In this document: positions 1 to 30,147 of the stretch, piece by piece
Layout of the letters: the number at the start of each line of letters is the position of its first letter
Position numbering within the stretch: the stretch's first letter is position 1
Assembly: GCA_025594325.1 (NCBI GenBank)
Contig: JANHCV010000008.1
Span: 1,612,001 to 1,676,000 of the forward strand
Length of the DNA: 64,000 nt
Reading direction: 5' to 3'
From: Blastocladiella emersonii ATCC 22665
Lineage: Eukaryota > Fungi > Blastocladiomycota
Position numbers and translations under genes: made by a program
The notes under the pieces: model-generated
Databases searched by the model: none
What the model was told of the DNA's origin: nothing
What the model saw: only the letters and a program-made list of their open reading frames with translations

Positions 1-881
1 CGAGCTGGCACGTTAAACTGTTCGTGTGAGAGACCTAAAAAGTCGCTTGCGAGTTTACATGGATGGACGATGAAACACTCTGCATTTGCGCCCTTGACAA
101 GTCGGAGTTCAGCAACGAAGCGAATGGCATTGAAACTGACCTCAAGTTTCAGATCGCCGTCGCTGTTGGGATTAAAGTACCCAGTCACGCTGGCCAGAGT
201 GGATGCAAGTGTTGCCTGCGTATAGAACCCGCGGGGAATCGTGTACTTTGACCGTAACCCAGTGACTTGCCCACTCTTGATTTGATCCAGCGATGTTCCA
301 AGCGGGAACACAGTCATATCCAGGAAGTCGTTTGTTGCGTCGACGCTATAGATGTTGTTCTCTATTGTAAAATCCAAGAGTCGGACGTGCGAGAACCTTG
401 AACCAGGTGGGAGCGGAATACGACCATCCGCCTGGACATCCGCGTTGGTGAAAGTGAAGACGTGCTCCTCAGTGGGATGTGACGCCTGGTGCTGTAGTTC
501 GAGTGCCTTTTGCCGAGCATCAACCGGTGCCGTGTAGACCGCACTTGATACTGTATCGACGGGAACGGCGTCAATGGAGAACGGCATGGTCGCAGTCGCT
601 TCCAGATCACGGCGAGTCACTGTGGGTACGCTCGGAAGTTCCTTGAGCATGCGTCGCTTAGCCTTTGCCTCAGCCGACACTGGGTTCACTGGTCGAAAGA
701 CTTTTTTTGTGCCATCCCTGGAGATACTCACAATCTTCTTGATCTTGAGGACGCGTTTCATGGGCCTTTGCGCAATGGGGATATCGTTCTCCTTGTTTCG
801 GATCCGGTCAGTGTCAGTCTCGGGCCGCGACCCAGTTGGTGCGCGGGACGTTGGACGCGTGCTTGGGCGTTGCCGATTCAT
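1..881 (-). CDS. Minor capsid (penton) protein, PLV/Polinton type, 3'-partial; missing from the supplied ORF track
   Basis: Manual translation from the ATG at 881 stays open to the window edge: MNRQRPSTR...FTIENNIYSVDATNDFLD...YTIPRGFYTQATLASTL. This resembles the 'N.Y.I...N' and 'IP.G.Y....L...L' penton motifs. Basic N-terminal extension. Confidence 0.75.
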   Translation of the reverse strand, partial: MNRQRPSTRPTSRAPTGSRPETDTDRIRNKENDIPIAQRPMKRVLKIKKIVSISRDGTKKVFRPVNPVSAEAKAKRRMLKELPSVPTVTRRDLEATATMPFSIDAVPVDTVSSAVYTAPVDARQKALELQHQASHPTEEHVFTFTNADVQADGRIPLPPGSRFSHVRLLDFTIENNIYSVDATNDFLDMTVFPLGTSLDQIKSGQVTGLRSKYTIPRGFYTQATLASTLASVTGYFNPNSDGDLKLEVSFNAIRFVAELRLVKGANAECFIVHPCKLASDFLGLSHEQFNVPA

Positions 882-899
882 TTACAGTACCCAAGGAAT

Positions 900-1661
900 T
901 TAATTCACGTACTTTTCGAACCGTTTGGTGAGCAGTCTCGCCTTGCTATTCTTGTAATTGACGTGCATGAACGAATAGTCCTCGGCAGTACAGTGATTAT
1001 AGATCTGCAACCACCGGTCCCAAGTCTTGCCACAATGATGCTCCTCGTAAAAGTTTTTCACTTCCTTTTGATTGCCCGTTGAGAACAACAGAAAGTTGGT
1101 TGTGTTGAGACGAAGCGGCTTGGCAAGCTGGAAGTAAGATTGTGTGACGTAGACCGTGGAAATCATGTAGTGTCGCCCGTTCATGACACAATCAATGAGG
1201 ACTTTGCTTTTAAGCACACCCGTTGCCGCGCAATCGTCGAGTACAAGGAGTACGGGCTGTCGATCGCGTTTGGGGATGGCTTTTTGCGACTCGATGAGTT
1301 CGTAGACCACGTTTTCAAAGGTCGCGGCATCCGTATGGACATCCGCCTCGGATGGAACGGTGGGGTCTTCAAGGTCATCGTCTGGGAACAGTCGCGCTTC
1401 GGCCTTGTCTTTGCGGCGGGGCTTTGAGAGGATTCCTGGCGCGAAGATGTGTTTCCACTTCTCGTCGCTTTCAAACGATGGACAGCACACGACAAGCCGG
1501 CTAAACTGGCCCTTGTAAAAGCGTGTGATCATGTTCAGTAGCGTGAGCGTCTTGCCACTTCCACGACATGCTACGATCGCACACGAAAAGCACACTTTGG
1601 GGATGAGCGAGTCCGGGCCCTTGGCGTCGCCCTTTTCTCGTAACGGTTTGATTTCGAACAT
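900..1661 (-). CDS. A32-like DNA packaging ATPase (FtsK-HerA superfamily)
   Basis: Walker A ACRGSGKT, Walker B LLVLDD, and the A32-type segment GRHYMISTVYVTQSYFQLAKPLRLN. Confidence 0.93.
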   Translation of the reverse strand: MFEIKPLREKGDAKGPDSLIPKVCFSCAIVACRGSGKTLTLLNMITRFYKGQFSRLVVCCPSFESDEKWKHIFAPGILSKPRRKDKAEARLFPDDDLEDPTVPSEADVHTDAATFENVVYELIESQKAIPKRDRQPVLLVLDDCAATGVLKSKVLIDCVMNGRHYMISTVYVTQSYFQLAKPLRLNTTNFLLFSTGNQKEVKNFYEEHHCGKTWDRWLQIYNHCTAEDYSFMHVNYKNSKARLLTKRFEKYVN

Positions 1662-1676
1662 CTTTACGGTATACCA

Positions 1677-1769
1677 TCAAAAGTATTTGCGTTTGAGCCA
1701 CAGAGCACACTGGACACACTCTACGGCGAGAACGTATCCGCCAAAATACATTAAAGCAGTTGAGAACAT
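1677..1769 (-). CDS. Possible 30-aa hydrophobic micro-protein (MFSTALMYFGGYVLAVECVQCALWLKRKYF)
   Basis: ATG-to-TGA ORF that fills the gap between two viral genes. Hydrophobic stretch followed by a basic tail. Below the ORF-track cutoff. Confidence 0.4.
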   Translation of the reverse strand: MFSTALMYFGGYVLAVECVQCALWLKRKYF

Positions 1770-1798
1770 GACTGATTTAATGTGTGATGAGAAAATAT

Positions 1799-2104
1799 TT
1801 AGGCGCCTTCTGAAAGCGCTCGGTCTATAGCGTGCCCTACGTGGGCAATACTGTCAAGAATCGGATCAACGCGGAGAATGGCTTCCTCAGCCAGGCCGCT
1901 TGCAAGGTTCACGCCAGCTGCAATGTCGCGAAGGACGGGAATCGGAAGACTCGAGATCATGCCGCTGTAGTACTTGGTATTATGTATAACGGGCGAGACT
2001 TTCTCGTGGAGAATGCGTTTCCCATAGTCGATACCAGTAACGAGCGCTTTGGCGGCAATCCCCGCGTATCCTTTCAAGTTATTCCAAGCGTTTGCAAACC
2101 ACAT
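1799..2104 (-). CDS. Small candidate virion protein with N-terminal amphipathic helix (adenovirus pVI-like, putative membrane-lytic)
   Basis: MWFANAWNNLKGYAGIAAKALVTGIDYGKRIL shows amphipathic periodicity. Located in the virion module. Function is inferred. Confidence 0.55.
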   Translation of the reverse strand: MWFANAWNNLKGYAGIAAKALVTGIDYGKRILHEKVSPVIHNTKYYSGMISSLPIPVLRDIAAGVNLASGLAEEAILRVDPILDSIAHVGHAIDRALSEGA

Positions 2105-2119
2105 TGTTTAACTATAGGC

Positions 2120-2650
2120 TCAGGAAAAAAGATGCGAAAAGTCTTGCACTGCAGATTTGGGCTGACGGGGATTCTGGAGTCGTTTTGGTTTGGCAGCGGG
2201 TTTGGGCACAGGTTTGGGCGGCGGGTCATCATACGAGCTCTCTGACTCGGATTCCGAGACATACACGACGCGTTGGCGCTGTTTCTTGGGCTTGGGCTTG
2301 TACACGACAATTTCTTCCTCCGATTCCGACTCGGACACTTGCACAGCCGCTTTCTTGGAAGCGATCCGAGTAGCGAGTTCCTTGAGCTTGGTCTTTTGTG
2401 CGGCAGCGAGGTCTTTCTTGCGTTGGGCCAGATTGGCGGCACGGACTTCGCGTGCTTTCGCCAGTGCATCCAGTCGCCGCTGCTTGATCACGTCCGGATC
2501 AGTTTCTTTAGGGAGTGCACTGCCGCCACGTTTCTGTTTCCACAGTTTCGCATTCTTGATTTCAGAAAGAACTTCCTCAACCGAGGCATCTGAGGTATCT
2601 GTCGCGGATGTTTCAAGGATGGGCTCCTCTACGGGCTGAGTGCGCGGCAT
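2120..2650 (-). CDS. Charged low-complexity viral protein (candidate core/DNA-binding)
   Basis: 176 aa with an RLDALAKAREVRAANL helix, K/R-rich and SESESE-rich tracts. Starts at GTAAATG. Confidence 0.65.
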   Translation of the reverse strand: MPRTQPVEEPILETSATDTSDASVEEVLSEIKNAKLWKQKRGGSALPKETDPDVIKQRRLDALAKAREVRAANLAQRKKDLAAAQKTKLKELATRIASKKAAVQVSESESEEEIVVYKPKPKKQRQRVVYVSESESESSYDDPPPKPVPKPAAKPKRLQNPRQPKSAVQDFSHLFS

Positions 2651-2675
2651 TTACAGTATCCTCAGAAAAAGATTT

Positions 2676-2927
2676 CTACGACGCAGTCTTCGTTTTCAGT
2701 TTCAAGAGCATTCGCTGTCTGATCTGAGAAATGTTTTCTTTGTGCGGGTCACTTGTGTGTTGGCGAACCAGGTCTTGCATCTTACGGAGACGCTTTGCCT
2801 GTCGTTTTCCAGAGATTTGGTTTTCTACCGGTTCCACGGGCCGTTCCTGAAGCGAAAAGGCAATGGACACGTCGTCGCTAATCGTATTCCGTGGGTCGTT
2901 GATCAGGACAAGCTCGGACAAATCCAT
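2676..2927 (-). CDS. Hypothetical viral protein (83 aa)
   Basis: Co-oriented with and tightly packed against its neighbours; preceded by GTAAAG. Confidence 0.6.
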   Translation of the reverse strand: MDLSELVLINDPRNTISDDVSIAFSLQERPVEPVENQISGKRQAKRLRKMQDLVRQHTSDPHKENISQIRQRMLLKLKTKTAS

Positions 2928-2953
2928 CTTTACTGAAGCCCGTCAAAAAGATT

Positions 2954-3733
2954 TCAAGTACTTGTGCGGCCGAAGGGCACTTTACAGACGTCCAAGAGCA
3001 CTCGGACAAAGAACTGGTACCCAGACATGTCCTTGACAATGGTCATGGTGATCCGGTTTTGCTCGTTTTTATCAAACTCGACAGAATGGGCTGCAGTATC
3101 GAGATGAAGGCGGTGGCGGTAGATATCGCGAAAGTACACTTGGCATCCCACAATGTGGTTCAGATCCGGAGTTGGGAGGATATTGGTGATGTCGAAAGTG
3201 TGCTGCGACTCGGACAGCGTCATGTCGTAATCGAGCAAAACGCGTTTGATGGGCAGGCTATGGGAACCAAAGTAATCGGCCTCCACGGTTCCGTCCATGC
3301 GAGCGTCGCCCTTGACGTAGAACGCGTTTTCGTCTGGCGGTGGGCCATTGTGCAGGATACTGAGGCCGTGATACGACAGATTCGTGACAACTTCAGGCGG
3401 ATCGTCGCTACGGCCAGGCGGAGCAACGTACTGGCAAACCTTTACGGTGCCGTTACCCATGTCTTCGGCCTCCATTGCGTACTGCGGACCACCTGGTCGG
3501 TACCGCCATGGCGACATTGCAAATCGCGTAGTTTCTCCTTCACCGCCTGGTCCTGTAATGCTAAACACGGCGCCGTCTTCCTTGGTATTTGAGTGCAGTC
3601 GCAGTACGGCGTCAGTTTCAATATCGACACTTCCATTGGCAAGTTGGATCGTGAGGTCTTGGTGGCGCTGGTCCATGACCTGGGACGAGAGCGTTCGGAC
3701 GCGGAGTGAGCCGTTTGCAGTTGTGGATGCCAT
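2954..3733 (-). CDS. Hypothetical viral protein (259 aa), beta-rich, possibly fibre- or capsid-associated
   Basis: Clean ORF starting at GTAAATG, divergent from the fibre gene. The FYVKGDARMDGTVEAD segment resembles fibre shaft repeats. Confidence 0.65.
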   Translation of the reverse strand: MASTTANGSLRVRTLSSQVMDQRHQDLTIQLANGSVDIETDAVLRLHSNTKEDGAVFSITGPGGEGETTRFAMSPWRYRPGGPQYAMEAEDMGNGTVKVCQYVAPPGRSDDPPEVVTNLSYHGLSILHNGPPPDENAFYVKGDARMDGTVEADYFGSHSLPIKRVLLDYDMTLSESQHTFDITNILPTPDLNHIVGCQVYFRDIYRHRLHLDTAAHSVEFDKNEQNRITMTIVKDMSGYQFFVRVLLDVCKVPFGRTST

Positions 3734-3782
3734 TTACTTGAACGCACGATTTTAAATTCAGCGGCGTGGGCAGTGATCGGCG

Positions 3783-3798
3783 ACATCCCCAGGGATGC
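3783..3798. promoter_or_regulatory. Dyad ACATCCC-CA-GGGATGC in the divergent intergenic region; recurs at 6901, 9190, 12454 and 12482
   Basis: Palindrome with a 2-bp spacer. The 16-mer at 3783 is the exact reverse complement of 12454-12469. Function unknown. Confidence 0.5.
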
Positions 3799-3848
3799 CC
3801 GTGTCAGCGTACGGTCATGTCGTGCATTTTTATCTCTCCAAAGTGTAA

Positions 3849-6494
3849 ATGGACTTGAACACGCGAAACATCTTTGGGTACGCACCTGGTACCGGTACTC
3901 CAACTGTGGTCGCCGATCCGGTGGCCATTGACAGCGTCTCAAACCTTGCAACAAAGGCGTACTGTAACGCCAACTCTGGAGTGGCTGCGGGGACCAACAT
4001 CGTTGTTACTGGCAAGACCGTTGCAGTGAGTGACCTACCTGGATTCTCCCAAGTCACGCTATCTGAGCCACCCACACTTCCAACGCATGCCGTGACCAAG
4101 GCCCACCTTGAATCAAAACTTTCAAACGTGATTGGCGCAGGTCCTGGTGTGAATGTCATTGGAAACGTCGTATCGGTAAAGGTGGACGACGCGACGCTTG
4201 GAGTTGGGGCACAGGGAATCTATGTCAAGTCCGGTCTTGCAGCTGGATCAGTGACGTCTGCGGCGATTCAAGATGGTTCGGTGACCACGGCAAAGCTGGT
4301 CGATGCATCTGTCACGCCTGAGAAACTCACAAGTGTGCCATGGACAAAAGTTACGGCTCCGCGGATCACAAACGCCATGCTGGCTGAACCCGTTGCCGAC
4401 GCAAACATTGCCAGCGTTTCAGCGACCAAGGTCGTGGGCCAATTTGCACAGAGTCAGCTCCCAAACACGATCGACGCGGGCCGAATCGGCGGTACACTTG
4501 CCGCGGCTAATCTCCCTTTGACTATTGACGCTGGCAAACTCACTGGATTGGTTCCGGTGTCGTGTCTTCCCGCAACGACATCGACAGCTGCATCGACCAT
4601 CACTGGACTCATCACCGACTCCCAAATCGCCGGAGTGTCCGCATCCAAGGTTTCGGGCGTACTTGCTGCTGCGAACATCCCCACGGTATTCTCAGGGATG
4701 ATTGCCTCCCTTGAAACGACCAAGTTGAACGGGCAGATCACAAATGCCCAAATCGGTGCCGTAGATGCTGCAAAGATTACGACTGGAACCATTGACTTGG
4801 CTCGACTCCCTGATGTTTCAAACAAAGTTGGTTCTCTGTCCGGCCTTGCACTTGTTGATGCATCTGTTTCGGATGCCAAACTTGTGAGTGTTTCTGGTGG
4901 AAAGCTCGTTGCGGGTTCAGTAGGTACATCAGCACTCGCTGACTTGGCTGTTTCGAACGCCAAACTTGCAACGGGAATCGACGGCGCCAAAGTCACGGCC
5001 GGATCTATTGGCAATGTCCAACTCGCAAGCGGTGCTGTCTCGGACATCAAGGTCGCGGACGTTTCTGCCGCAAAGCTGACAGGTACACTCGATGTTGCAC
5101 GCATTGCTGACGGTTCGATTGGCAATCTCAAACTCGCAACGGGAATTGATGGCGCCAAAGTCACGGCCGGATCTATTGGCAATGCCCAACTCGCAAGCGG
5201 TGCTGTCTCGGACATCAAGGTCGCGGACGTTTCGGCTTCCAAGCTCACTGGCACACTCGATGTTGCACGAATTGCGGACGGTTCGATTGGCAATCTCAAA
5301 CTTGCAATGGGTATTGATGGCGCCAAAGTCTCGGCCGGATCCATTGGAAATAGCCAGCTTGCAAGCGGTGCTGTCTCGGACATCAAAGTCGCGGACGTTT
5401 CCGCTACAAAGCTCACTGGAACTCTGGACGTGGCACGTATCGCGGACGGTTCTATCGGGAATCTCAAACTGGCCACAGGAATTGACGCTACGAAACTCGC
5501 AGGAACCATCGACATTGCCCGTCTTCCCGATATTTCCTCAAAAGTGACATCCGTGAGCGCATCCGCACTAACAGGCACAGTGCCTCAATCCGCACTTGGA
5601 CTTGGCGCGACGTTTGCGTTTACGAATACGACGGATAGCACATCGACTTCATCTGGTGCGATCACGATTAACGGCGGACTTGGAGTGAATAAACAACTGT
5701 CCGTGCCCAACATTCTGGTCCGAAACTTTACGAGCGCGAATATGGTCTTTGACAGTGCGGTAAACACGCTGACGTACGTCGACTTTAAACAAGCTGGCGT
5801 CATCAAGAACAATCTCGCATGTACTGCCGCAGGGAATCTCGAACTCGCATCCGCAACGACGGGCGGCGTATCCCTGGCAGCTGGCGGTGGGAACGTGGTC
5901 ATCGGATCAGCGACCCTTGGAACAGAAAAACTTCGAGTCAACGGCACTGGTCGGTTCACTGGCCAACTCACACTCGACCTTGCTCCAGTGGCGGGCACAG
6001 ATGCCGCGAATAAAGCGTACGTCGATAATCTCATGGCTACAAATCGGTGGGGACAGGTTCTCATCAACTCGGCGAGTTTGTCGTTTTTATCCGGACAATC
6101 CCAGGTCATCACGGGCGCAAACAGTCAAGGCGCGGCGATCGTAAACTCGACAAGTCCCGGGTTCCTGGGTCTTGGAGCAACCAACGGCTGTTTCACTGTC
6201 AGCGCAACGGGATGGTACGCACTACGCAGTCAGGGCTGGTACACGCAGGGAAGTACGGTCACGGAGCACATCGCGACTTACTCGCTGTATAATGCCACCG
6301 ACTCGACGGTAGCGGGTAAGGACTACATTGGACTGCTGGCACGAGCTCTCTGTAAGTTCGCGTCGGATCAATACATGGGAGGCAGTGCTACAGTGTACCT
6401 TGAAGCCGGAAAGCAGTACGGGTTCACGTGGTCTTCCACCGTTTCCATGACCCAATCCGTTCACGTCACTCTTGACCTCTTCTTTATGCGCTGA
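3849..6494 (+). CDS. Fibre/receptor-binding-like protein (881 aa) with internal repeats and a C1q/TNF-like C-terminal head
   Basis: ATKAYC, AVTKAHLE and DAANKAYVD fibre-type motifs; many I.A.K[VIL]TG repeats; C-terminal FTVSATGWY...VYLEAGKQY beta domain. Confidence 0.7.
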   Translation: MDLNTRNIFGYAPGTGTPTVVADPVAIDSVSNLATKAYCNANSGVAAGTNIVVTGKTVAVSDLPGFSQVTLSEPPTLPTHAVTKAHLESKLSNVIGAGPGVNVIGNVVSVKVDDATLGVGAQGIYVKSGLAAGSVTSAAIQDGSVTTAKLVDASVTPEKLTSVPWTKVTAPRITNAMLAEPVADANIASVSATKVVGQFAQSQLPNTIDAGRIGGTLAAANLPLTIDAGKLTGLVPVSCLPATTSTAASTITGLITDSQIAGVSASKVSGVLAAANIPTVFSGMIASLETTKLNGQITNAQIGAVDAAKITTGTIDLARLPDVSNKVGSLSGLALVDASVSDAKLVSVSGGKLVAGSVGTSALADLAVSNAKLATGIDGAKVTAGSIGNVQLASGAVSDIKVADVSAAKLTGTLDVARIADGSIGNLKLATGIDGAKVTAGSIGNAQLASGAVSDIKVADVSASKLTGTLDVARIADGSIGNLKLAMGIDGAKVSAGSIGNSQLASGAVSDIKVADVSATKLTGTLDVARIADGSIGNLKLATGIDATKLAGTIDIARLPDISSKVTSVSASALTGTVPQSALGLGATFAFTNTTDSTSTSSGAITINGGLGVNKQLSVPNILVRNFTSANMVFDSAVNTLTYVDFKQAGVIKNNLACTAAGNLELASATTGGVSLAAGGGNVVIGSATLGTEKLRVNGTGRFTGQLTLDLAPVAGTDAANKAYVDNLMATNRWGQVLINSASLSFLSGQSQVITGANSQGAAIVNSTSPGFLGLGATNGCFTVSATGWYALRSQGWYTQGSTVTEHIATYSLYNATDSTVAGKDYIGLLARALCKFASDQYMGGSATVYLEAGKQYGFTWSSTVSMTQSVHVTLDLFFMR
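4977..5480 (+). repeat. Three tandem 168-bp (56-aa) coding repeats in the fibre gene
   Basis: IDGAKVTAGSIGN.QLASGAVSDIKVADVSA.KLTGTLDVARIADGSIGNLKLA.G starts at 4977, 5145 and 5313. Confidence 0.95.
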
Positions 6495-6495
6495 T

Positions 6496-7607
6496 TCAGT
6501 GGCGCACCGTACCCCTAAATCGACCAGGTTCGCGTCGATCACGTTCCGGCGGCTTGCGTGGCTCGATTGGCTGCTTAGTGCGCGTCTGTGGTGCTGGTCG
6601 CTGTGGCGCAACGCGTCCCGGCGGCTCACGTGATACTGAAACGGGCTGGAGATCAGTTCGAGAGTAAAACCCGACGCGACCGGCGACTTTATAGCTCGGA
6701 TTACTCACCCCCGAACCCTTGCGGACTTTGGTGACTTGGTGCAATGTGTCGCTCCACACCGGCTTTCCCTTGGACTCTCACTGGGTCTTGTACGGAATGC
6801 GCACGCGAACGAGCTGGCCGACTTTCAGCAACGCGCTCAGTGGATCACCCTCTCTGGTTTGCCCCGAGCGGCACGGATGGCTTTGAGCTCTGTCTTGGCG
6901 ACATCCCTGGGGATGTTGTCGTAGGCGTTCGGCGCTTTACCCGTCCCACGACTCTTGGACTTGTTGATCACGTCCTCGATTACCTTGAGGTGTTTTGGCC
7001 AGTCGTTGTTGCCTTCAATCGACATCCACGGGATGAGCATTGACTTGATTGTACGATTCATTCGTTCTGCAACTCCCTGGCCTTGGGGCACTCCGGGTTT
7101 GCCTTTAATGTGCTTCACAGTGGTCCCGGCCACAATGGTTGCAAACTCTGTCCCGTTATCCGTCTGGATCGTAGCGGGATTCAAATTGTGTTCCTCTACG
7201 ACCTTGTCCCAGATTGCCCGCACGTTGGCCGCTTCGCGTTTCTTTACGGGTCGGAGATAGACTTTACGCGTGGCAAGGTCGACAGCGACGAGAATTGCAG
7301 TGTAACCGTTAAAGTGCTTTGCTTCGCCCATGATAATCGAGTCCATCTGGAAGTTGCGGCCGGGACTAACGGACGAGATCACACGAATGTCGCGGTGCTT
7401 GTACTTGGGCTGTTTATATTGCTGCCACACTGATTGCTCTCCAAGCCATTTTTCGAGTTGGGCTCGGTAGATGTGCTGCCCTGTACTTTCCGCGGTGATG
7501 ATATCAAATAATCGCCTGATGCCGACGCCAACGTGGCCCTTTTTATAGCACAGGTTGCTCAAATACTCTGATTGAGCATCCGTAAGTGGTTCTTCGTGCG
7601 GATACAT
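6496..7607 (-). pseudogene. Polinton-type rve (DDE) integrase with C-terminal frameshift and premature stop
   Basis: The core 6837-7607 has QMDS, QTDNGTEF and AERMNRTIK. The C-terminal domain LKVGQLVRVR...PVWSDTLHQVTKV...FYSRTDLQPV continues in another frame after a shift near 6850-6855, with an in-frame TGA at 6778-6780. It ends 1 bp from the stop of the fibre gene. Confidence 0.88.
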
Positions 7608-7631
7608 TATATTAACAAGGAGAAATATCCA

Positions 7632-8984
7632 TCAGTTCTTGCCGACCATGTACGTGTCGACGTGAACGCCCACGGAATGACCCATGGCATGGGCGCGAGC
7701 CTTGATCTCGTTGTACGCCTTCGTGTTCTCAGGCGCGCTGATCCGGCGCAGCTTCTGGACTCCAACGTCAAGTCCAACGAGCTTGCCACTGCGGCCAACG
7801 TCTTGGCACCACTTCTTGCACAGCGCCTCGGCGTCATCAATGCTGTCGGCAAACACGAAATCAAAGCCCTGGTCGCGGCGGTACTTGATAAACTTGGCGA
7901 GCATGTTAGCCTGGTCGTCGGCAACGCGGTGCTTGAAGTCGTATCCGCGGCCGGCCGTCTTGATCACAATGGGACCGTAAATGAGCTTCGTCTCAGGGTC
8001 GTAGTGCGGGAAGTGGTCCGTCTTATCCACAGTGAGGAATGCGAGGTCACTGCGAACCGTAGTCAGAGTCTGGAGGTAAAGCTGCAGCTGGTGGACCTTG
8101 CTGGCGAGGCTGACTTCCTTGTCCAGCGTCCAGTCAAACTTCTCGTTGATCGCCTTCAGAACCTCAGCCTGAGTGGGCAGCGTGCCGGCTTCCTCCTTGT
8201 TGCGGGCCTCGCGCTTCTGCTTACGAAGCTCCTGGGCGTGCTTCGAGTACTGATCAGCAAGCTCATTGTCGCCGTTCCAGTTGCAGTACACGCTGAGCCA
8301 CTTGGCCGTGTCCAACTGGAGCGCATCCGGCGGGTTGTTCTTTCCCTTTTTGTTGTCCCACTTGACCATGGCGGCCTTCACAGCATCCACGTTGTGCATC
8401 GAGACGCCTGAAGCCATGAACTTGGTGAGAATGCGGTTCGCCGTCGCTTTATCAGTATCGCTGCGCTTCCCGACTTCCTTGTTGGCCTTGATGATGTCCG
8501 CGTTCTTGAACTCCTCAATCGACTTGGCTGTGATCGTCTCGAACTTGAGCTTCTTTGCGGGGCGCTCCGGCACGGTGGTCTCAGACGCGTCGCTCATGAC
8601 CACGTCCGCGGACGAGTGATCAGCCGCGTGATCCGAGTCACGTGACGTGTCGTCACCGCCATTGCCGGGCACGGTCGACGCCTCTTGCTCCATCTCATTG
8701 TAGGGGCGCTTCAGCGCGCGGCGACAATGCGAGTCCAGAACCAGCTTGAAATCCCGAACGTGCAAAACACAGTCAAAAACTTGATCATTCACATTAGACA
8801 TGCCTATAAGCAGCGTATCAGACTGAGCCTCAATGACTTTGAAGCGTGGGGCGAGCTCAGCCACGTGGCTTGCGATCGCTTGCTGCTGAGCCTTGATGGC
8901 TTGGAGGCGGGGCTCAAGCGCGCCCATGAACTCCTTGGTGGCTTGAGCGAGGATGTCCTTGACCAGAAGCTCGAACGACGCCAT
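7632..8984 (-). CDS. Tyrosine recombinase, PLV/virophage-type, with coiled-coil and acidic N-terminal extension
   Basis: Catalytic-like residues in order: TVRSDL (R), VIKT (K), QKLRRI (xxLR), AMGHSVGVHVDTY (H...Y at the usual spacing). Confidence 0.8.
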   Translation of the reverse strand: MASFELLVKDILAQATKEFMGALEPRLQAIKAQQQAIASHVAELAPRFKVIEAQSDTLLIGMSNVNDQVFDCVLHVRDFKLVLDSHCRRALKRPYNEMEQEASTVPGNGGDDTSRDSDHAADHSSADVVMSDASETTVPERPAKKLKFETITAKSIEEFKNADIIKANKEVGKRSDTDKATANRILTKFMASGVSMHNVDAVKAAMVKWDNKKGKNNPPDALQLDTAKWLSVYCNWNGDNELADQYSKHAQELRKQKREARNKEEAGTLPTQAEVLKAINEKFDWTLDKEVSLASKVHQLQLYLQTLTTVRSDLAFLTVDKTDHFPHYDPETKLIYGPIVIKTAGRGYDFKHRVADDQANMLAKFIKYRRDQGFDFVFADSIDDAEALCKKWCQDVGRSGKLVGLDVGVQKLRRISAPENTKAYNEIKARAHAMGHSVGVHVDTYMVGKN

Positions 8985-9079
8985 TGTGCTTTACTACAGA
9001 GCAGGCAAAAAAGGTACGCGGGGATGTCCGCGTTTTATACGTTTGGCGTTATCGCTAAAAGTTTTCGCGCCTGTTGCTA

Positions 9080-9535
9080 ATGGACTCGCACTTGATGGGA
9101 TTCTTCCTGAGCCATGTCACTGACATCCCCAACACTGTATTCGATCCAGAACTCGTTCTGCAGCTTGACAGCGAAGCCATCGCAACGATATCCCCAGGGA
9201 TGGCGGATGCCGCGTTTGAGAAGGTCCGCGCACTCGCTGCCCGCGTGGCGATCGTCGAACTCGCTTTGAATCGCAAGCTTTCCAAGTGCCCGCTCACTTC
9301 CTGGGGCGAAAACACACTCCTCGAGCTCGTGGGCAAGTTCAAGGTCCGGAAGCTGGACGTGGACATTGCAGGAACTCTTGCCAAGTTTTCCATTCCAGAG
9401 TGCGAGGGGGAAAACATTCGCGCGGAATGGGAAGAAGTAAAGCTCGATGTGATGCTCAAGGCAATTGCAAAGGCATCTGTGCGCAAACTCGAAAAGAAAC
9501 AGAAGCCAGAAACGGCGGAAGATGACACAGAATAG
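9080..9535 (+). CDS. Hypothetical viral protein (about 151 aa)
   Basis: ATG at 9080, divergent from the recombinase. Helical, with a charged C-terminus. Confidence 0.55.
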   Translation: MDSHLMGFFLSHVTDIPNTVFDPELVLQLDSEAIATISPGMADAAFEKVRALAARVAIVELALNRKLSKCPLTSWGENTLLELVGKFKVRKLDVDIAGTLAKFSIPECEGENIRAEWEEVKLDVMLKAIAKASVRKLEKKQKPETAEDDTE

Positions 9536-9654
9536 ACGTTCCAGCGATCCAAAAGACATATCGATAGCTATTTCTGAAGAGTTATCGATAAACGCGCCAG
9601 ACGCATAAAAGCAGCCGGTTTTTCCTCTTGTGGGACAGTAAGAACATCCCCAAA

Positions 9655-12021
9655 ATGTCTTCTGCCGCCTCAAAGATTACCGAGACTGTCAAGGACCTTT
9701 CAAAGATTCTTGACCCGCTCTATGCTGTCCGCCTCATGGCACCAGTGAATCCCAAGGCCGTGGAAGCTCTACACAGCAAGGCGATCCAGTGTTCGTGTGC
9801 CGACCCAAAGCAACAGGCCAAGGAAACGAAAATCGTCAACTCAATCCGTCGCAAGATGAATAAGCGCGGTGAAATCGAGACCATCTACAAGTTCTCAGAC
9901 ACGACAAACTCTGGTCGACTTACTACCACGCCTACTACTCCTGGGCTACAAAAGATTTGCGGCGAAACGCGTGCGTTCCTGTTCGAGGGCGTGCTCCAAG
10001 ATATCGACATGCACAACTGTGCGCCAACCATCATCTACCAACTGGCTCGTCACTACGGCCTTGAGTACCCGCTCTTGACAGAGTACATTCAGAATCGAAG
10101 CCTGGTACTGGATCGACTGGGGATGAGTAAGACCGATTTCTTCGCTGGCGCATTCCACAAAAAGTGCCCGTCGGAACTCCCTGCGGATTACAAGATGTTC
10201 CATGCGTTCCTGTACAACGTGGTGGTGCCCAAGTTCCAAGAGATGCATCTGGACGTGTGGGCCATGTCGTCGCCAAAGCATCCCAATCGCCAGGGCTCAT
10301 TCCTCTCGTTCGTCTATCAGTGCGTCGAGTGCAAGGTTCTGCTCCACGCCAAAGACTTTTGCGCCTCGCGTGACATCAAGGTCGCGGTTCTCATGTACGA
10401 CGGCATGATGGTCCGTGCCTCAGATCAGATCAACGAGCAGTTTATGGCCGACCTCGGTGCGTACACGCTCGAAAAGACGGGTTTTGATATCAAGTGGGCC
10501 GAGAAAACCATTGTCGCGCCCTGTGCCATTCCAGAGCCCGAGGAAGAGGAGGAGGAGAAGACGCCCGAGGAGGAAATCTCCGAGTTCATCATCCACGAGT
10601 TTGAGACCAAGGGCTACGCCAAAGACGGCGACACGATCTACGCTGCATCCGAGGCCAATCCATTCTACTACGAACCGCTGATGACAGTGGCAGAGTACAC
10701 GTCGTACCTGCTCGACGAAGTGTTCATTCAGTACTTTAACAAGAACGCGCACAAGTACGCTCGCGATGTTGCTGCTCGTCTCGGCCACGGTTCCAAGCAC
10801 ATCCGCCAGTACAAACCGAATCGCAGCCTGATCGCATTCAAAAACGGCGTTCTGTTCACGGGCACGAAGCGCAATCGCCAGTGGGGGCTTTACAGTTTCG
10901 AGGACATTGAGAACGACCGCGAGCGATTCGAACGCGAAGTTTGCGGCGGATGCCCTGTGGCATGGTCGTACATTGACAACGAATTCGACTTTAGCATTCC
11001 GCGCTCGGAATACGGCAACCTCGACCTCGGCCCGTACCGCGACGTTCTCGATCTACAGATGGGCGAGGACCCCGAGGCAATCAAACAGTACATCATGCTT
11101 GCGTTCGGCCGTTCATGCTTCCCTGTAGGCGAGCTCGACAACTGGCGTCTTTGCCTCATTACGTGGGGCGAGTCGGGTACAGGCAAGACTCTGACAATGG
11201 ATCTGCTCAAGGAAATCCACGGAATCCAGCGCATGAGTATCATGGAAAGCGGGGCGAAGATGACGCCGTACACAATCGGTTACGTGCGCGAAAAGCCATT
11301 CTGGATTCTCCAGGATGTGGGCAAGGACGTGATTGCCAAACTTGGTCAGTCGCTGTTCAAGAACGCATCTGAGGGCGGCGGTCTCATGGGCGGCATGAAG
11401 CATCGCGACGAAGACACCAAGCAGTTTACCACCCATATCATGATGACGCTCAACTACCTCGTACAGTTCCAGGAAGAAAGTGGCGAAACCTCTACTCGAA
11501 TGGTCATTGCCCATTTCAAGAACAAGCCGGCTCGCAAGGACGACAAGATTTTCAAGCGAATCGTGGACAAGTACCTGATCAACATTATCGTCACGGGTCT
11601 TTCGGCGTATCATTCGACTCTGGATCACCTTGACGCGAACCCAGAGCAGACCTTCCGCGATGATGTGCTGAGTCCATTCTTCAAGCAATCCAACGAACAG
11701 GCGCGTGTGCTTAATGACGTTTATGGCAAGGCGATCCTGGCACAGGACTCGGGGTTCGTGGTCACTCAAGACCCGGCCGACTACGTGGGACTGGACGAGA
11801 TTCAGAACGCGGGCAATGTCTCGATTTCCGCCAAGTGGAACGACGAGCTCATGGCAGCGATTGGACTGAAGGCCGATCGCATCAAGGTGTGTCGGAACTG
11901 TGGAAAGAAACACGTCAAGGGGTGCTGTGCAGACTACAGTCGTACGGCCCGCTCTTCAAAGCGAGTGGTGACTGGAATCCGCCGCGCCCGTTTCTCAGAT
12001 GGCACAGAGGACGACGACTGA
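9655..12021 (+). CDS. PolA-like primase-polymerase (TVpol) fused to D5-like superfamily 3 helicase, with a C-terminal Cys/His cluster
   Basis: SGRL...LQ...R...DIDMHNCAP (motif A-like) and LMYDGMMV (motif C-like). Helicase motifs IAFKNGVL, WGESGTGKT, ILQD and TLNY. Terminal CRNCGKKHVKGCC. Confidence 0.88.
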   Translation: MSSAASKITETVKDLSKILDPLYAVRLMAPVNPKAVEALHSKAIQCSCADPKQQAKETKIVNSIRRKMNKRGEIETIYKFSDTTNSGRLTTTPTTPGLQKICGETRAFLFEGVLQDIDMHNCAPTIIYQLARHYGLEYPLLTEYIQNRSLVLDRLGMSKTDFFAGAFHKKCPSELPADYKMFHAFLYNVVVPKFQEMHLDVWAMSSPKHPNRQGSFLSFVYQCVECKVLLHAKDFCASRDIKVAVLMYDGMMVRASDQINEQFMADLGAYTLEKTGFDIKWAEKTIVAPCAIPEPEEEEEEKTPEEEISEFIIHEFETKGYAKDGDTIYAASEANPFYYEPLMTVAEYTSYLLDEVFIQYFNKNAHKYARDVAARLGHGSKHIRQYKPNRSLIAFKNGVLFTGTKRNRQWGLYSFEDIENDRERFEREVCGGCPVAWSYIDNEFDFSIPRSEYGNLDLGPYRDVLDLQMGEDPEAIKQYIMLAFGRSCFPVGELDNWRLCLITWGESGTGKTLTMDLLKEIHGIQRMSIMESGAKMTPYTIGYVREKPFWILQDVGKDVIAKLGQSLFKNASEGGGLMGGMKHRDEDTKQFTTHIMMTLNYLVQFQEESGETSTRMVIAHFKNKPARKDDKIFKRIVDKYLINIIVTGLSAYHSTLDHLDANPEQTFRDDVLSPFFKQSNEQARVLNDVYGKAILAQDSGFVVTQDPADYVGLDEIQNAGNVSISAKWNDELMAAIGLKADRIKVCRNCGKKHVKGCCADYSRTARSSKRVVTGIRRARFSDGTEDDD

Positions 12022-12534
12022 ACCCACTACCAAATGGCCGCCTACTCTATCAACCTATTTTGTGTCTCTGTGTCTCTGTGTCTCAGCTATAATATTCTTT
12101 TCTATAAATTGAAGAAAAAAATAGTAACATACTAAGTATGTATGTTGTTTTCAGTTCAAAATACGATTTACAAGTGAAATCGCAGGGACACTGGGTCACT
12201 GGGACAAGACTCACCAACCCTCATCGATACTCTCACTGACTGACTCACCATTTCCTCACCGCGCCGACGGATTCATAGACCGTTTGCCAATATCGCCCAT
12301 GCCCGTCATGGATTTCAATTCATCGAATAATCGCAAAGTCATTTCGAGACGCGTCGCGGATCAGATGACCGTCACGTGGGCCGCGAGACACTTGGAGACG
12401 CGTCGACTTATCACGTGAGGACCCTCCGCCACTTCGTGGCTGCGGGCGCGCGCGCATCCCTGGGGATGTTTCTGACGGGCGTCCCCAGGGATAGACCTAA
12501 CCACATCTACCTCTATAGCCATTTAATCCTATCC

Positions 12535-12560
12535 TGAGGTATCCTTATAAGGATACCTCA
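12535..12560. repeat. Perfect 26-bp palindrome TGAGGTATCCTTATAAGGATACCTCA
   Basis: Read directly from the sequence; centred on TTATAA. Confidence 0.95.
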
Positions 12561-12587: not shown

Positions 12588-12803
12588 TGTTGCGTGTCGT
12601 TCATGTGGCCACGACCGCGGTGATCAATCATCTGATCTCGCGTGAGCCGCCCGCAATCCCTCGCTCCCGCGCCGCCGCACCCCGCTGCGGCGCGCCCTGC
12701 TTTGTTATCCATTCTCCCCTCTCCCCGTCTTGGGTTCGGGGCCGAAGGCAGGAATAGACATCCCTGACTACTCGTCTCCCGCCTCCTCCTGTCGGCATCA
12801 ACA
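12588..12803 (+). mobile_element. Solo LTR (family A, 216 bp)
   Basis: TGTTG...CAACA termini flanked by the 5-bp TSD GACGC on both sides. Homologous to 44364-44584. Confidence 0.85.
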
Positions 12804-13393
12804 GACGCATTACCGTTGAATCCCTGGGTTCGTCCTGCCGCGCACCACGTCAAGTGTAGACTCTCAGTATGTAGAAAGCGGCTCACGGTTACTGAAGTTG
12901 GCGTTTGAGACTGAGACCATCCTCTGGGGATGGGTGTGACAGAGTGTTTAGCTCTTACGACGTTGAATCTCCGACCTATATCTCAAAAGGCATTTAAATT
13001 CTAATTTATTGCCATGCTGCCGTGTTACATGGTCGCAAAGGAGAGGGGTGACGAGCGCGGCGAAACGACGCTGTTCACGTGCTTGCGTCCCTCACGTGGG
13101 CGTCACATGATAGTTTGTCGCGTCTTGCACACCATATGTCCGCCCAGCTGATTGAGCAGCTGAAACATAAAAGTCAATAAAAAAAAGATATGCTAAATTA
13201 GCGTTGAGCCGACGGCGCTATCGTTACACTCGCAACCCAGAACTCGAGCCGGGAAACAATTGACTGATTGAGAGTCGTCAGCTCAAATGACATTGACATG
13301 ATTTCCCTACCCGTCTTGTTCAGTTTTTCTCACGCTTGTTCCAATACGAATATTTATACACCCATTTTCACTTCCGATGAGACAGTCAGCGAC

Positions 13394-14125
13394 TAAACCC
13401 ATGAGTAAACCCTGACTAGACTCGGACCAAACCCGCATCAGACTCGGATCAGACCCTGACTAAACTTCAATTGAACTGCGACTAAACCTCGACTGAACCT
13501 TGACTAAACCTCAACAAAATCTTGATTAAACCGTGACTGAACCTCAACTAAACCTCGACTGAACTCAGACTGAACTCGGAGTAAACCGCGACCAAACCTT
13601 GACTGAACTGTGACCAAACCAAGACCAAACCTGAAGTAAACCGCGACCAGAACTCGACTAAACCTCGACTAAACCAACACCAAACCTGAAGTAAACCTCA
13701 AGCAAAACGCGAGCAGAACGCGAGCAGAACGCGACTGAACCGCGACTAAACCGCGACTGAACCGCGACTAAACCGCGACTAAACCGCGACTAAACCGCGA
13801 CTAAACCGCGACTAAACCGCGACTAAACCGCGACTGAACCTCGACTGAACCGCGACTAAACCGCGACTAAACCGCGACTAAACCGCGACTAAACCGCGAC
13901 TGAACCTCGACTGAACCTCGACTAAACCTCGACTGAACCTCGACTGAACCTCGACTAAACCTCGACTAAACCGTGACTAAACCTCGACTAAACCTCGACT
14001 AAACCGTGACTGAACCTCGACTAAACCTCGACTAAACCGTGACTGAACCGCGACTGAACAGCGACTGAACTCGGAGTAAACCGCGACTGAACGCGACTGA
14101 ACAGCGACTGAACCGCGACTGAACC
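13394..14125 (+). repeat. Left subterminal array of 11-bp units (ACCGCGACTAA / ACCTCGACTGA variants)
   Basis: Dozens of tandem units, degenerate near the TIR and homogeneous at about 13740-14040. Confidence 0.95.
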
Positions 14126-20440: not shown

Positions 20441-20949
20441 CTGGTCACGTTCTGGTCTGGTTTTGGTCCAAGTCTGCTTTCAGTCTGCTTTCAGTCCACT
20501 CAGGTCATATTCAGGTTTGCTCCGAGTTGTCTCGGCGCTGGCTTCATTCAATTTCAGTCTGGTCTGAGTCTAGTTTGCGTTTAGTCCGAGTCTAGTTTGC
20601 GTTTGGTCTGCGTTTAGTCTGGTTTTGGTTTCAGTTTAGTCTGCGTTTGGTCCAGGTCTGGTCAGCTTTTGCTCGAGTTTGATTTTAGTTTAGTTTAGTT
20701 CCAGTTCAGTTTGAGTTTACTTTGGGTTCAGACTGAGTCTACTTTGGGGTTGATGTGGGCGTTTCAGGGTCTGCTCATAGTCTGACTCAAGTCGAATAGA
20801 ATTCTGTTTCTGGTTTGCTCGAGGTTTACTCTGAGTTCAGTCATGGTTGAGTTTAGATTTACTCTAGGTTTACTCTAGGTTTACTCTAGGTTTACTCGTG
20901 GTTCAGTCATGGTTCAGTTGAGTTTCAGTCACGGTTTAGTCTGAGTTTA
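20440..20949 (-). repeat. Inner part of the right subterminal 11-bp array (reverse complement of the left array)
   Basis: TTTAGTCTGAG / GGTTCAGTC-type units. Continues at 24189-24411 beyond the Harbinger insertion. Confidence 0.85.
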
Positions 20950-21158
20950 GGGCCCGTTTGGTTCAGATCAGGTGGATCAGCTGAAAAAGTTGCCACGTTT
21001 CACCTCACCCCCGTTCATCTCAGCGGCCATGCGAACCAAACGCCCCGCTGGATGAACGCCCCCCCGCAATAAAATCTTTCCCACCTCTTTGCAGCCGCAC
21101 TTATTGCAACGAATCAACACCTAACCTCACGCATCGTGTTCTCGAGCCCTCAAACGAC

Positions 21159-22476
21159 ATGGGCAAGGGATACAACCGCAAGCTGCGCGGCCTCATGCTC
21201 ACGGCCGCCCTCGCTCTCCTGCGACGTCTCGCTGCGCGCAACGAGCGCCGCTCGTGGGAGCCTATCCGCACGTCCACGCTTTCTGGCGAGTCGTGGGTTC
21301 AAGAGCTGCTGACGTGCAACAGCGAAACGCGTTTTTCGGAAATCGCCCGTATGCCCCGCGAGACCTTCAAGGCCATCTGCCGCCTGTTCCGCGACCGTGG
21401 CCTTCTCGCCGACGGCCGCGAGCTGTCCGTCGAGGCGCGCTTCATGGTTTTTCTTGTCATGGCCGGCGAGGGCAGCACCAACCGCAACCTCAGGGAGCGG
21501 TTCCAAATCTCTGGCGAGACCGCGTCCAGGGTTCTGAAGCAAGTGCTCGACGCTCTGTACCGCCTGATGCCCGAGTTCATTGTCCAGCCGTCCGATTCTA
21601 CGCCCGTGCATGAGCGCATCGCCCACGATCCGAAATACGCTCCGTTCCAGAACGCGGTCGGCGCGCTTGACGGAACGCACATCCCGTTTGTTGTGCCCAC
21701 TAAGCTTCACGACTCGTTCCGAAACCGCAAGGGGACCATATCCTCAAATGTCCTCGCTGCCTGCGACTTTGACTTGAACTTCACCTACGTTCTCGCAGGG
21801 TGGGAGGGCAAGGCGCACGACTCGCGCGTGCTCTCGGACGCCTTCGCCCGTGGGTTCAAAATCCCCGCCGGCCGCTTCTACCTCGCCGACGGCGGCTACG
21901 CAAACCGCACGTCCATCATCGTGCCCTTCAGCGGTACCCGCTATCATCTTCGCGAGTTTGCGCGCGGCAAGGATGGGTACGTTCTCACTGCCATGACCAT
22001 CACGTTGGCGCCATCTCATCTGCTTCACCAACGTACGTAGAGTTAAGAACCGCGAAGAGCTTTTCAATCTGCGCCACGCGTCGCTCCGCAACTCTGTTGA
22101 GCGTATCTTTGGCGTGCTCAAGAAGCGGTTCCGCGTCCTCTCGATTGGCGCGGCCTACCCAATCAAGACTCAAGTCAAGCTTGTGTACGCGCTCTGCACG
22201 CTGCACAACATGATCAACAAGTGGAACCAAGGCGGCGACGCCTTCTTTCGCGACGCCGAGACGGAGCTCCGGCGCGCGCGGGACGCGGCGCGTGAGGCGC
22301 CAGTGCGTGGGCGCGAGCCCCTGGACGACGAGAACGAGGAGGACGACGAGGCCGCTGTCCTCGAGGCCTCGCTGGACGGAGCTCGTCAGCGCGGTATCTC
22401 GCTTCGGAACCGCGTCGCAAATGTTCTTTGGACCGAGTACAGGCGTGTCATGGCCGCTCGTGGGACCCGTCTTTGA
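21159..22476 (+). CDS. Harbinger DDE transposase (HARBI1-like), intron 21977-22040, 417 aa spliced
   Basis: GALDGTHI, GWEGKAHDSRV, YLADGGY; splicing restores FNLRHASLRNSVERIFGVLKKRF. Confidence 0.95.
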
Positions 22477-22788
22477 AGGCGCGAAATAATTGTTGTACCC
22501 GCATGCATGCTGTAATATACTGATTTGTCAAGTACTATAACGTTAGATAAGCGATTCCAGATGATTTGACGCGTCGCTGAGGTCAGAACGCATCGGTGGA
22601 GACGCGTCGATCAATCACGTGACGTGCGAGACACTTTGAGAACCACGCGTTTCTCAACGAGTCGCGTCATTTTCGAGCGAAGGGTAACAATTGAAGATAC
22701 GATGGATACAAAGCCAGATGTATTGGACACAAATGGGCGAGAACAAGGCCAGGAAGCAACGCGAGGGAGGGGGACATGTGCGAGAGAG

Positions 22789-23918
22789 CTACTGAATGAA
22801 AAACTCGAGGACGCGCTTGCGCTTCGGTCCGGACACGGCCATGACGCGAAGCGCTTGATCCTCGGTCAGGCGGGTGGCGACGTCGATCTGGTACTCTTCA
22901 TTGTCGTTGTACGCGTCCTGGACCCATTCAAGTGCGGCGGTCAGAACGGGCTTGGAGTCGGCGGTCGAGACGCTCTGGAACACCTCCTTGATGCCCATGA
23001 GGAATTCCGAGTCCGAGAGGCGACGCGAGCTGCTGTCCGAAGTGCGGCTGCGCTTGCTGGCGGGGGCCGCGTCGTCTTGACCATCGACACCTTCCACGTC
23101 ACCAGACTCCTTGCCGTCCTGCTTGAGGTGCGAGTACTCGCCGGTGGCGGTCGAGCTGCCCCACGGCATGTTGGCCTTCTTGTAGTACGGGAAGGGCTTG
23201 CAGCCCGCAGTCAGCTCCTCCTTGAGCTCTGCCTACAATTGAAGCAGGCCAGGCGCTGTTAGCTCGCCGCGAGTTGACGCGTAACGATATTGAACAAACG
23301 TACCGAGAGATCGTTCCAGAACTCCTCTGGCACGTCGACCGTGCACTCACCCTCATTCCAGGTGCAGCCGTTGCCCGAGTACGACAGAAGCCGTTTTACG
23401 GCGCGAAAACAAGTGCGAAGCTGGAGCCGAACGCTGACGTTGTTAGCGCTACGGTTGACGCGTGTCCGCAAGACAAAGCGTACGTATGTCACGCGGTTCT
23501 TGAACTGCTCCGCCGTAAACTGCATGTTGAACTCGTCCGACAGGGCCTGGGCAATCGACACACGGTGCTGGGCCTTGAGCGTGTTGCTGTCGCCGAGCAC
23601 GCCGTCGTCGGCGAGGTTGCAGAAGTGGTCGAGGAGGAAGTTGGTCGACGCGGAGCAGAAGGTGGCCTTGCCGCCGCTGGCCTTGCCGCTGCTGGCCTTG
23701 CTGCCACTGGCCTTGCGCTTGCTTGGCTTGGCGATGGTCACGGGCGGCAGCGGGTTGGTCGGCGTGACAGCAGCGTTGCCGTCGCTCCCAGCAGCGTTGT
23801 CATCTGCATCCTCGTCGCTATCGGCGGGCGGCGGCGGGATTTCGGGCACGTTCTTGACGATCTCCTCGATGGACATGGCCGTACGGCCAGCGCGCTTTTT
23901 GCTTGACGGGGGAGCCAT
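22789..23918 (-). CDS. Harbinger Myb/SANT-like DNA-binding protein, two short introns
   Basis: Spliced QFKNRVTY-LRTCFRAVKRLLSYSGNGCTWNE...FWNDLS-AELKEEL...KPFPYY. GTACG donors. Confidence 0.88.
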
Positions 23919-24188
23919 TCTTTTCGGCTTTGAGGGAGGACGGGGGAGAGAGAGCGAGTTACGTTGGAGGAAAACGGCGTTTATATAGGCCGGGGAGCAC
24001 AGCCTGAAGGTTTCGGGGGCGAGCAGACGGGCGATTCAGCGACGAGGGTTCCATTCAGCTCACCCGGGGGTCGAACCAAACGCCGCGATGAACGCGACGG
24101 GGTGAAAATGCCACGTTTCAGCTGGGTGAACACCGGACCGTGTAAAATCGATTGATCCACCTGATTCACCCCGGAACCAAACGGGCCC

Positions 24189-24411
24189 TTAGTCTGAGTT
24201 TAGTCTGAGTTTAGTCTGAGTTTAGTCTGAGTTTAGTCTGAGTTTAGTCGAGGTTTAGTCGAGGTTCAGTCACGGTTTGGTCTTGGTTTGTCCATGGTTC
24301 TGTCGCGGTTTAGTCGAGGTTCAGTCGCGGTTCAGTCGAGGTTTAGTTGCAGTTCAGTCGCGGTTCAGTCGCAGTTTAGTCGCGTTTTAGTCGCGGTTTA
24401 GTCGCGTTCTG
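24189..24411 (-). repeat. Outer part of the right subterminal 11-bp array
   Basis: TTTAGTCTGAG about five times, then TTTAGTCGAGG / TTCAGTCGCGG units up to the TIR. Confidence 0.95.
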
Positions 24412-24480
24412 GTCGCTGACTGTCTCATCGGAAGTGAAAATGGGTGTATTGGACACTCCTAAAACATGCACAAAGCGATC

Positions 24481-29600: not shown

Positions 29601-29916
29601 CCAACGTCGGTCTGGCGTTCTGCTCGCGCGCTCATCGTGACAACGCTTCCTACCTAAGCGTCGACGTTCCCGTCGTGCAAACGAAAGCGCTTCCTTTGCT
29701 GCGTGCGCGTCTCGCGTGCGGCTTTGGACGGGCTCGCATGGTGTCTAGCTCAAGTCGCGAGCGGCGGGCGACGACTTGAAGTCCACCGATTCACAAACTG
29801 TATCGCTCTCTCGCAATGCGCATAAATTCGAGACGTGCGCCCAGCTCGATTGATGCGAGCATACAAAATGGCTGGGAGTTACTACTTGGCAGGCACGAAC
29901 GAGGAGGAGGAGCCTG

Positions 29917-30147
29917 AGAAATCGGACTGGTCAGTCCGATTTCTACGGGCCCGTCCAAAAATCGCCTGTGAATTCCTCCTGCTTGGGCTTAACTGAGGGG
30001 AAGGACCTTGTCGACCTGTAGAAATCGGACAGGCCTGTCCGATTTCTATGGGCCCGTCCAGTAGTAGCCTGGGATTTCCTCCGGATGCGACTTGCTGAGA
30101 GGAGCGGCCTTGACGACCTTGAGAAATCGGACGAGCTCGTCCGATTT
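29917..30147. repeat. Three units of about 102 bp, each containing an AAATCGGAC-N6-GTCCGATTT palindrome
   Basis: Palindromes at 29917-29944, 30019-30048 and 30124-30147, with centres TGGTCA, AGGCCT and GAGCTC. Confidence 0.9.

Follow-up and report, generated by a model that had tools for sequence, protein, structure and literature searches.

Within a 64,000-nucleotide stretch of the genome of the fungus Blastocladiella emersonii ATCC 22665 (contig JANHCV010000008.1, positions 1,612,001 to 1,676,000, referred to below as the window), position 1 to about position 12560 is occupied, judging from the sequence, by an endogenous Polinton-like virus (PLV) whose right part falls within the window and whose left part lies outside it. 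The element encodes, next to each other, an integrase of rve type together with a tyrosine recombinase (Table 1). The integrase gene is broken in this copy, the majority allele of the family is open, and the break belongs to the copy in the window. A first-pass annotation of the same DNA had proposed either that the recombinase has taken over integration and excision, or that it has another job and that this copy has been immobilised. The takeover is not borne out, as contigs of three of four sequencing runs are open at both lesions and the likely viral end closes with CA; the second proposal is the better of the two, with the limits that an open integrase from a sister copy could act in trans and that the lesions may be assembly errors. 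Our best overall reading, which we hold at even chances, is that rve is the family's host integrase and that the recombinase has a different job at the viral ends. The enzyme pair as native genes of a Polinton-like virus, and in a fungal host, is new; the pair and terminal palindromes have already been reported in virophages of Cafeteria and Halocafeteria.

The integrase, its lesions and its sister copies

The catalytic core of the integrase is open, as the first-pass annotation had stated, and its D-D-E triad is invariant in all six aligned homologues. The gene stands alone, without a reverse transcriptase. In this copy the C-terminal domain is out of frame with the core, and the window sequence bears out the two lesions that had been reported to cut it off, a frameshift at the (CT)3 run and a TGA at 6778 that interrupts the frame of the tail. 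On sequence grounds the tail is nonetheless a genuine C-terminal domain: a profile built from the C-termini of six homologues matches one frame of six only (34.3 bits, E 6.5e-12, the stop being treated as X), the score of the real frame is 36.1 bits whereas none of 1000 shuffles rises above 4.7, and a sister rve protein (P0009) aligns through the stop with identities of 16/28. The tail has no PHROG match and is presumably SH3-like. The restored frame ends one base from the fibre stop, at 6496-6498 against 6494, just as had been noted, and the uninterrupted gene would encode, by arithmetic, 369 aa, compared with 380-415 aa in five full-length homologues. The view that this is the ancestral frame gains support from the tail profile and from majority contigs that lack the lesions. 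Recoding of TGA as an amino acid and programmed frameshifting were considered and rejected, because TGA terminates the fibre, recombinase and replicase open reading frames (ORFs) and the majority contigs need no recoding.

Other copies, in which the first-pass annotation had suggested looking for intact alleles, were compared through assembled contigs from four DNA runs (X1-X4), all of one sample. X1, X2 and X3 each contribute a single contig that crosses both lesions and has neither, so that core and tail are in frame there, while X4 does not cover the site. Among the differences listed for the X1 records that tile the rve gene there is no new stop (for 6747-6757 by manual reading). The family comprises some five copies or more. 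Its recombinase genes (family 1) are found on five scaffolds that differ in length, with near-identical relatives in Blastocladiella emersonii, and in X3 a piece specific to this copy has a contig depth of 37.8 against about 212 for the element body, which roughly fits five or six copies, contig depth being a rough guide and not a copy number. In the partial list of differences the synonymous and non-synonymous counts are 3 and 3 for the rve core, 3 and 3 for the recombinase and 3 and 0 for the fibre gene, too few to use. In the region 8947-11000, where a small ORF is followed by the beginning of the replicase gene, 60 of 1376 letters differ from an X1 contig, with several joints, and the copies look mosaic. 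A second, more distant family has three recombinase genes at 35% identity and rve at 60%; distant recombinases and rve proteins from the same host species (P0016, P0019, P0020, P0017, P0009 and P0021) point to at least one second provirus family.

The two lesions mean that a single copy has decayed, or possibly that the assembly is in error. Were both of them errors of assembly or polishing, the integrase of this copy would be intact, irrespective of what the recombinase does. Neither lesion appears in any contig, the frameshift falls within a dinucleotide run and, according to the sections of the Cafeteria virophage study available to us, no re-sequenced site there confirmed the fragmentation of conserved genes (PMC8547959). 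However, the contigs omit the differences of this copy all along the element and not at the lesions alone, and they are thus silent on the reality of the lesions; X3 also contains, without differences, a long piece that only this copy has. Moreover, two distinct lesions lie within 75 bp, and the stop sits among closely spaced substitutions, most of which leave the amino acid the same or replace it conservatively; this patch may be a recombined segment. We regard assembly error as unlikely.

A module takeover, in which the recombinase and the primase-helicase replace the rve module and the broken rve gene is the first sign of its loss, would agree with a published model of end-module turnover that predicts rve decay, in the part of that source available to us (10.1101/2023.10.16.562556). 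The recombinase and replicase genes adjoin the terminal repeat, as the model describes, and the recombinase of this copy is intact. Against this stand the majority contigs with an open rve gene and the likely end closing with CA, which together leave the takeover unsupported; recombinase copies decay as well, two of the three family-2 genes having lost the first catalytic Arg. Takeover appears very improbable. Conversely, we are fairly confident that there is no takeover at the level of the family, that it is rve which links host DNA to the CA end and that this copy is mobile only via a sister integrase.

A tyrosine recombinase of Xer/Cre type

The 450-aa ORF beside the integrase has no relevant Pfam, PHROG or NCBIfam match of its own, and sequence searches of the PDB returned nothing relevant, but weak matches to PF00589 were obtained for two of five relatives in the alignment (best E 0.0049). 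We built a structure model from a 10-sequence alignment, with a mean predicted local distance difference test score (pLDDT) of 74.8, a predicted template-modelling score (pTM) of 0.62 and poor quality at the C-terminus. In this model the protein has the core-binding and catalytic domain fold of tyrosine recombinases. All 39 of the Foldseek matches listed belong to the tyrosine recombinase superfamily (best E 1.2e-3, none at 0.001 or better), and structural alignment gives Z 10.4 with XerA (root-mean-square deviation (rmsd) 9.8, 227 aligned), Z 9.9 with Cre (rmsd 5.0, 244 aligned) and Z 9.8 with XerH (rmsd 4.7, 257 aligned). Among viral models, nine reach E 0.001 or better; of those with names, giant-virus proteins rank first, the nearest being from an Aureococcus virus (E 1.4e-5) and a tyrosine recombinase from a Heterosigma virus (E 3.8e-5). 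The fold assigned in the first-pass annotation is hence upheld by structure searches, while profile searches of the ORF itself contribute no relevant match.

As to the catalytic residues, the five that had been claimed (R-K-R-H-Y) are all present, as R311, K342, R413, H436 and Y445, with the qualification that the His of the H-x-x-R motif is replaced by Gln410; five of the six residues of the set R-K-H-R-H/W-Y are accordingly found by alignment, the active-site geometry being poorly modelled. K342, H436 and Y445 are invariant in 10/10 aligned proteins, the most distant of which is 23% identical; R311 is conserved in 7 of the 9 proteins that cover the site and R413 in 9/10, and the position of the first His is Gln in 9/10. 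That position varies within the superfamily, according to the part of a study available to us (PMC3558466). The N-terminal extension at 8560-8891 is not the same in this copy as in the majority form, the recombinase part being 96-98% identical, which looks like a swapped segment.

Membership of the protelomerases was rejected: there is no PF16684 match, and the alignment with TelA/TelK-type, hairpin-making enzymes reaches Z 4.6-4.9 compared with about 10 for Xer/Cre. Among matches named in the Atlas, 2 of 30 are protelomerases, at 0.95, and 17 of 30 are Phage_integrase, at 0.96. A K-x-x-R motif of protelomerase type was likewise discarded, since the position is Gln.

The replacement of the first catalytic His by Gln might also suit a protein that is mainly a DNA-binding repressor or scaffold, silencing the provirus at a 14-bp near-palindromic motif. 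This motif occurs at 3784, 6902, 9189 and 12455, four copies against 0.02 expected and confined to the element, and one copy lies between divergent genes; a phage repressor, SroF, shares the fold (Z 9.4, rmsd 5.9, 242 aligned). The conservation of the two Arg residues and of the Lys, His and Tyr described above is, however, more than a repressor requires, and we consider this explanation improbable. The motif itself is possibly an operator or promoter element. Weaker matches to it occur at 713 and 12480, and there is a likeness between its half-site and the palindrome arms at the viral end.

The viral end and a possible division of labour

The element probably ends at 12560. Contig depth is about doubled over 12070-12516, as expected of a terminal repeat, one end of the element being in the window. 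Two contigs of X4 depart from the window sequence behind 12560 with unlike letters, among the loose ends listed, and those contigs of X1-X3 in which the right flank lacks a 216-bp solo long terminal repeat (LTR) match just 23 letters to the left of 12582. This solo LTR (12588-12803, TG...CA) has a 5-bp target-site duplication and begins 27 bp beyond the likely viral end, on its right, and contigs show its empty site. A short motif of the viral terminal region (12382-12418) recurs in host DNA at 22597-22622, 39676-39701 and 61845-61881, and a similar motif within the integrase tail (6598-6634) matches many host contigs.

At this end lies a perfect palindrome with 10-bp arms around a self-complementary 6-bp core, although any even palindrome has such a core. 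Counted as a whole, it has an arm of 13, whereas the longest arms in 30/30 shuffles are shorter (6-11). Our search found no related loci for it. Retroviral-type integrases join CA ends, and 12559-12560 is CA, the end that an rve-type enzyme would use, provided that the boundary is right.

On the reading that we favour, the rve integrase would insert the virus into host DNA by its CA end, and the palindrome, folded into a hairpin, would prime replication and give head-to-head junctions. This priming role is suggested by the presence of a primase-helicase, with no protein-primed polymerase B (pPolB), in the part of the element seen. The recombinase would then cut across the 6-bp core to resolve the head-to-head junctions or, alternatively, would recombine the two terminal palindromes and so release the provirus. 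With an rve nick at the outer-edge CA, every new insertion would restore the complete palindrome. The copy in the window would move only if a sister copy supplied the integrase in trans. That the recombinase acts on the terminal palindrome is a putative step to which we give slightly less than even chances. More tentatively still, and with the odds against it, tyrosine recombinases of PLVs and virophages lacking pPolB could in general be end resolvases and not host integrases, an enzyme of Xer/Cre fold cutting the palindrome core while rve nicks the outer CA.

Several known systems come close to this arrangement, each described here from the parts of its source available to us. Virophages of Halocafeteria seosinensis and a PLV subtype 4 share with the present element terminal palindromes, a non-pPolB replicase and an RVE integrase, and such palindromes, beside target-site duplications, accompany non-pPolB replicases and particular RVE integrases (10.64898/2026.07.28.741278). 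Some of those virophages carry both RVE and a tyrosine recombinase while the PLVs do not, whereas here it is a PLV that has both; the palindrome drawn there is 52 nt long compared with 26 here, and its authors propose hairpin priming and integration into giant viruses, not an action of the recombinase on the palindrome (10.64898/2026.07.28.741278). All mid-GC EMALE virophages (types 5-8) of Cafeteria burkhardae likewise combine rve and tyrosine recombinase with a long primase-helicase and lack pPolB, but they are virophages of a stramenopile, and the main text makes no mention of a palindrome or hairpin (0 occurrences) (PMC8547959). Most of them have short target-site duplications (PMC8547959), and for the EMALE05 virophages, which have both enzymes, duplications of 3-5 bp are given in 7/8 rows seen (PMC8547959 supplement 1).

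PLVs with an end module of recombinase and primase-helicase resemble our element in having the recombinase beside the primase-helicase near the terminal repeat, and in their A32 ATPase, but are usually without rve, which is present here (PMC4642659; 10.1101/2023.10.16.562556). Ectocarpus phaeovirus proviruses (PMC13236599), grouped here with the bacterial protelomerases TelA and TelK (PMC3558466), show a division of labour in which an integrase is accompanied by a second enzyme whose substrate is a palindrome having a 6-bp core. The phaeovirus pair consists of a recombinase integrase and a telomere resolvase (PMC13236599). In them the integrase is a tyrosine recombinase and the palindrome internal (PMC13236599), whereas here the integrase is of rve type and the palindrome terminal, and our recombinase is no protelomerase-family member by profile and structurally closer to Xer/Cre than to TelA/TelK. 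The accessible part of a survey of 8300 elements records both enzymes together only via nested retrotransposons (PMC12220804), and PLV ATPases have been noted in chytrid genomes in the portion seen of another report (10.64898/2026.06.19.733378). Our literature search, most subscription papers aside, retrieved nothing on Blastocladiella with polintons, nor on protelomerases with polintons.

Two different targets offer another account of the pair, with rve inserting into the host chromosome, the recombinase inserting into the genome of a helper giant virus and the palindrome serving as a replication primer only. Integration into two targets has been proposed for virophages with both enzymes, and palindromic ends exist without both enzymes, as far as the available parts of those sources go (PMC8547959; 10.64898/2026.07.28.741278 for both points). 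The nearest named viral folds of our recombinase are giant-virus proteins, as given above. No att-like site or helper virus was seen in the window, however, and this account leaves the link between recombinases and non-pPolB replicases unexplained; we judge it unlikely, to about the same degree as an assembly error at the two lesions.

A number of points weigh against the division of labour that we favour. The link between recombinase and palindrome is putative, and the palindromes described in a PLV subtype are said, in the part of the source available, not to accompany both enzymes (10.64898/2026.07.28.741278), which means that palindromic ends need not require a recombinase. The boundary at 12560 comes from two contigs of the weakest run, among the loose ends listed, and from one joint with a 23-letter side, and a host repeat in the window also has long palindromes, with arms of 15 and 12. 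In the recombinase, the first His is Gln410, the model is unreliable around H436 and Y445 (pLDDT under 50) and the Z scores to hairpin-making protelomerases are about half those to Xer/Cre. Further, a pPolB gene may lie in the left part of the element outside the window, and the rve genes of other copies may be broken too, since the contigs lose minority alleles and come from one sample.

The element and its surroundings

The PLV label is given because of the A32-type packaging ATPase, which is present, and the gene layout; the major capsid protein of PLV type, which separates PLVs from virophages, would be expected to be encoded in the left part. The ORF that runs off the window at its left edge, which may encode a minor capsid protein, judging from a likeness of motifs, has no match in Pfam, PHROG or NCBIfam family scans, so that no family match backs the label. 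In the replicase ORF the helicase is on the C-terminal side and the N-terminal part is without family match. No pPolB was found among the ten ORFs scanned in 1-12021, where the primase-helicase stands instead.

Table 1. Features of the Polinton-like virus in the window, by position
Feature	Position	Strand	Basis or remark
Right part of Polinton-like virus	1..12560		gene set; contigs of four runs; boundary inferred from loose ends and a joint
Likely minor capsid protein, runs off window	3..881	-	ORF only; label from likeness of motifs
A32-type packaging ATPase	900..1661	-	PF04665 E 3.7e-9, over cut-off
14-bp near-palindromic motif, between two divergent genes	3784..3797		one of four copies
Fibre-like protein, three 168-bp repeats	3849..6494	+	PF09327 E 6.5e-6
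Integrase C-terminal domain, out of frame	6496..6900	-	internal TGA 6778-6780, stop 6496-6498
Patch of dense differences from majority contig, includes stop	6739..6786	-	contig comparison
rve integrase core, 256 aa, D89-D150-E181	6837..7607	-	PF00665 E 1.6e-9, over cut-off
(CT)3 run, frameshift site	6850..6855	+	contigs of three runs are shorter here by two letters
Tyrosine recombinase, 450 aa, Xer/Cre-type two-domain build, variable N-terminal extension	7632..8984	-	predicted fold and residues
Primase-helicase-like replicase	9655..12021	+	PHROG DNA primase E 4e-5; TIGR01613 E 2.8e-5, below cut-off
Non-coding terminal region, likely terminal inverted repeat	12022..12560		summed contig depth about 2x body in X2 and X3
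Perfect 26-bp palindrome, begins TG, ends CA	12535..12560		likely element end

Searches among viral contigs and metagenomes found no loci related to the recombinase, and none turned up for the ATPase. The recombinase profile gave no significant match in 40 loci, and tblastn of seven other element proteins gave no matches in virophage loci L001-L003 and L043-L046. In the virophage contig L002 (9995-12125), and also in L003, rve lies beside a convergent ORF in which motifs like those of recombinases can be recognised by eye, in the company of Prim-Pol and with no pPolB seen. The convergent ORF has no Pfam recombinase match and no significant similarity to the recombinase of the window; the two contigs possibly represent another dual-enzyme element. 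They contain no palindrome with an arm of 9 or more, which is uninformative for fragments (74-76% complete). In the fragments L001, L044 and L046, rve is present and no recombinase was recognised by eye.

To the right of the viral element, the window holds host repeats and transposons. Two near-identical 3245-bp elements in inverted orientation (20949-24193 and 38105-41349) are likely products of recent transposition, and each encodes a transposase that is presumably Harbinger-like. Arrays of an 11-bp satellite occupy 13370-14125, 20556-20949 and 24188-24421, one 3245-bp element having such an array on either side, and at 29915-30147 there is a 103-bp tandem repeat, each unit of which contains a palindrome of 24-30 bp.

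The tyrosine recombinases of small eukaryotic DNA viruses have variously been assumed to be host integrases, giant-virus integrases or enzymes of end maintenance, and their link with non-pPolB replicases has been termed elusive, in the part of the source available to us (10.64898/2026.10.13.758929). If the proposed role as an end resolvase is true, it would explain why recombinases travel with PolA/AEP replicases. One broken rve copy is poor evidence for the takeover of a module, and a broken gene is in itself ordinary; the idea of a disabled integrase superseded by a recombinase comes down to a single copy in ordinary decay. The remaining interest lies in a Polinton-like virus of a fungal host to which both enzyme genes are native and whose palindromic end closes with CA. 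Here a single element family of about five or more copies unites rve, a recombinase and a short candidate target, and because this multi-copy family resides in a cultured, non-pathogenic fungus, the role of the recombinase is directly testable.

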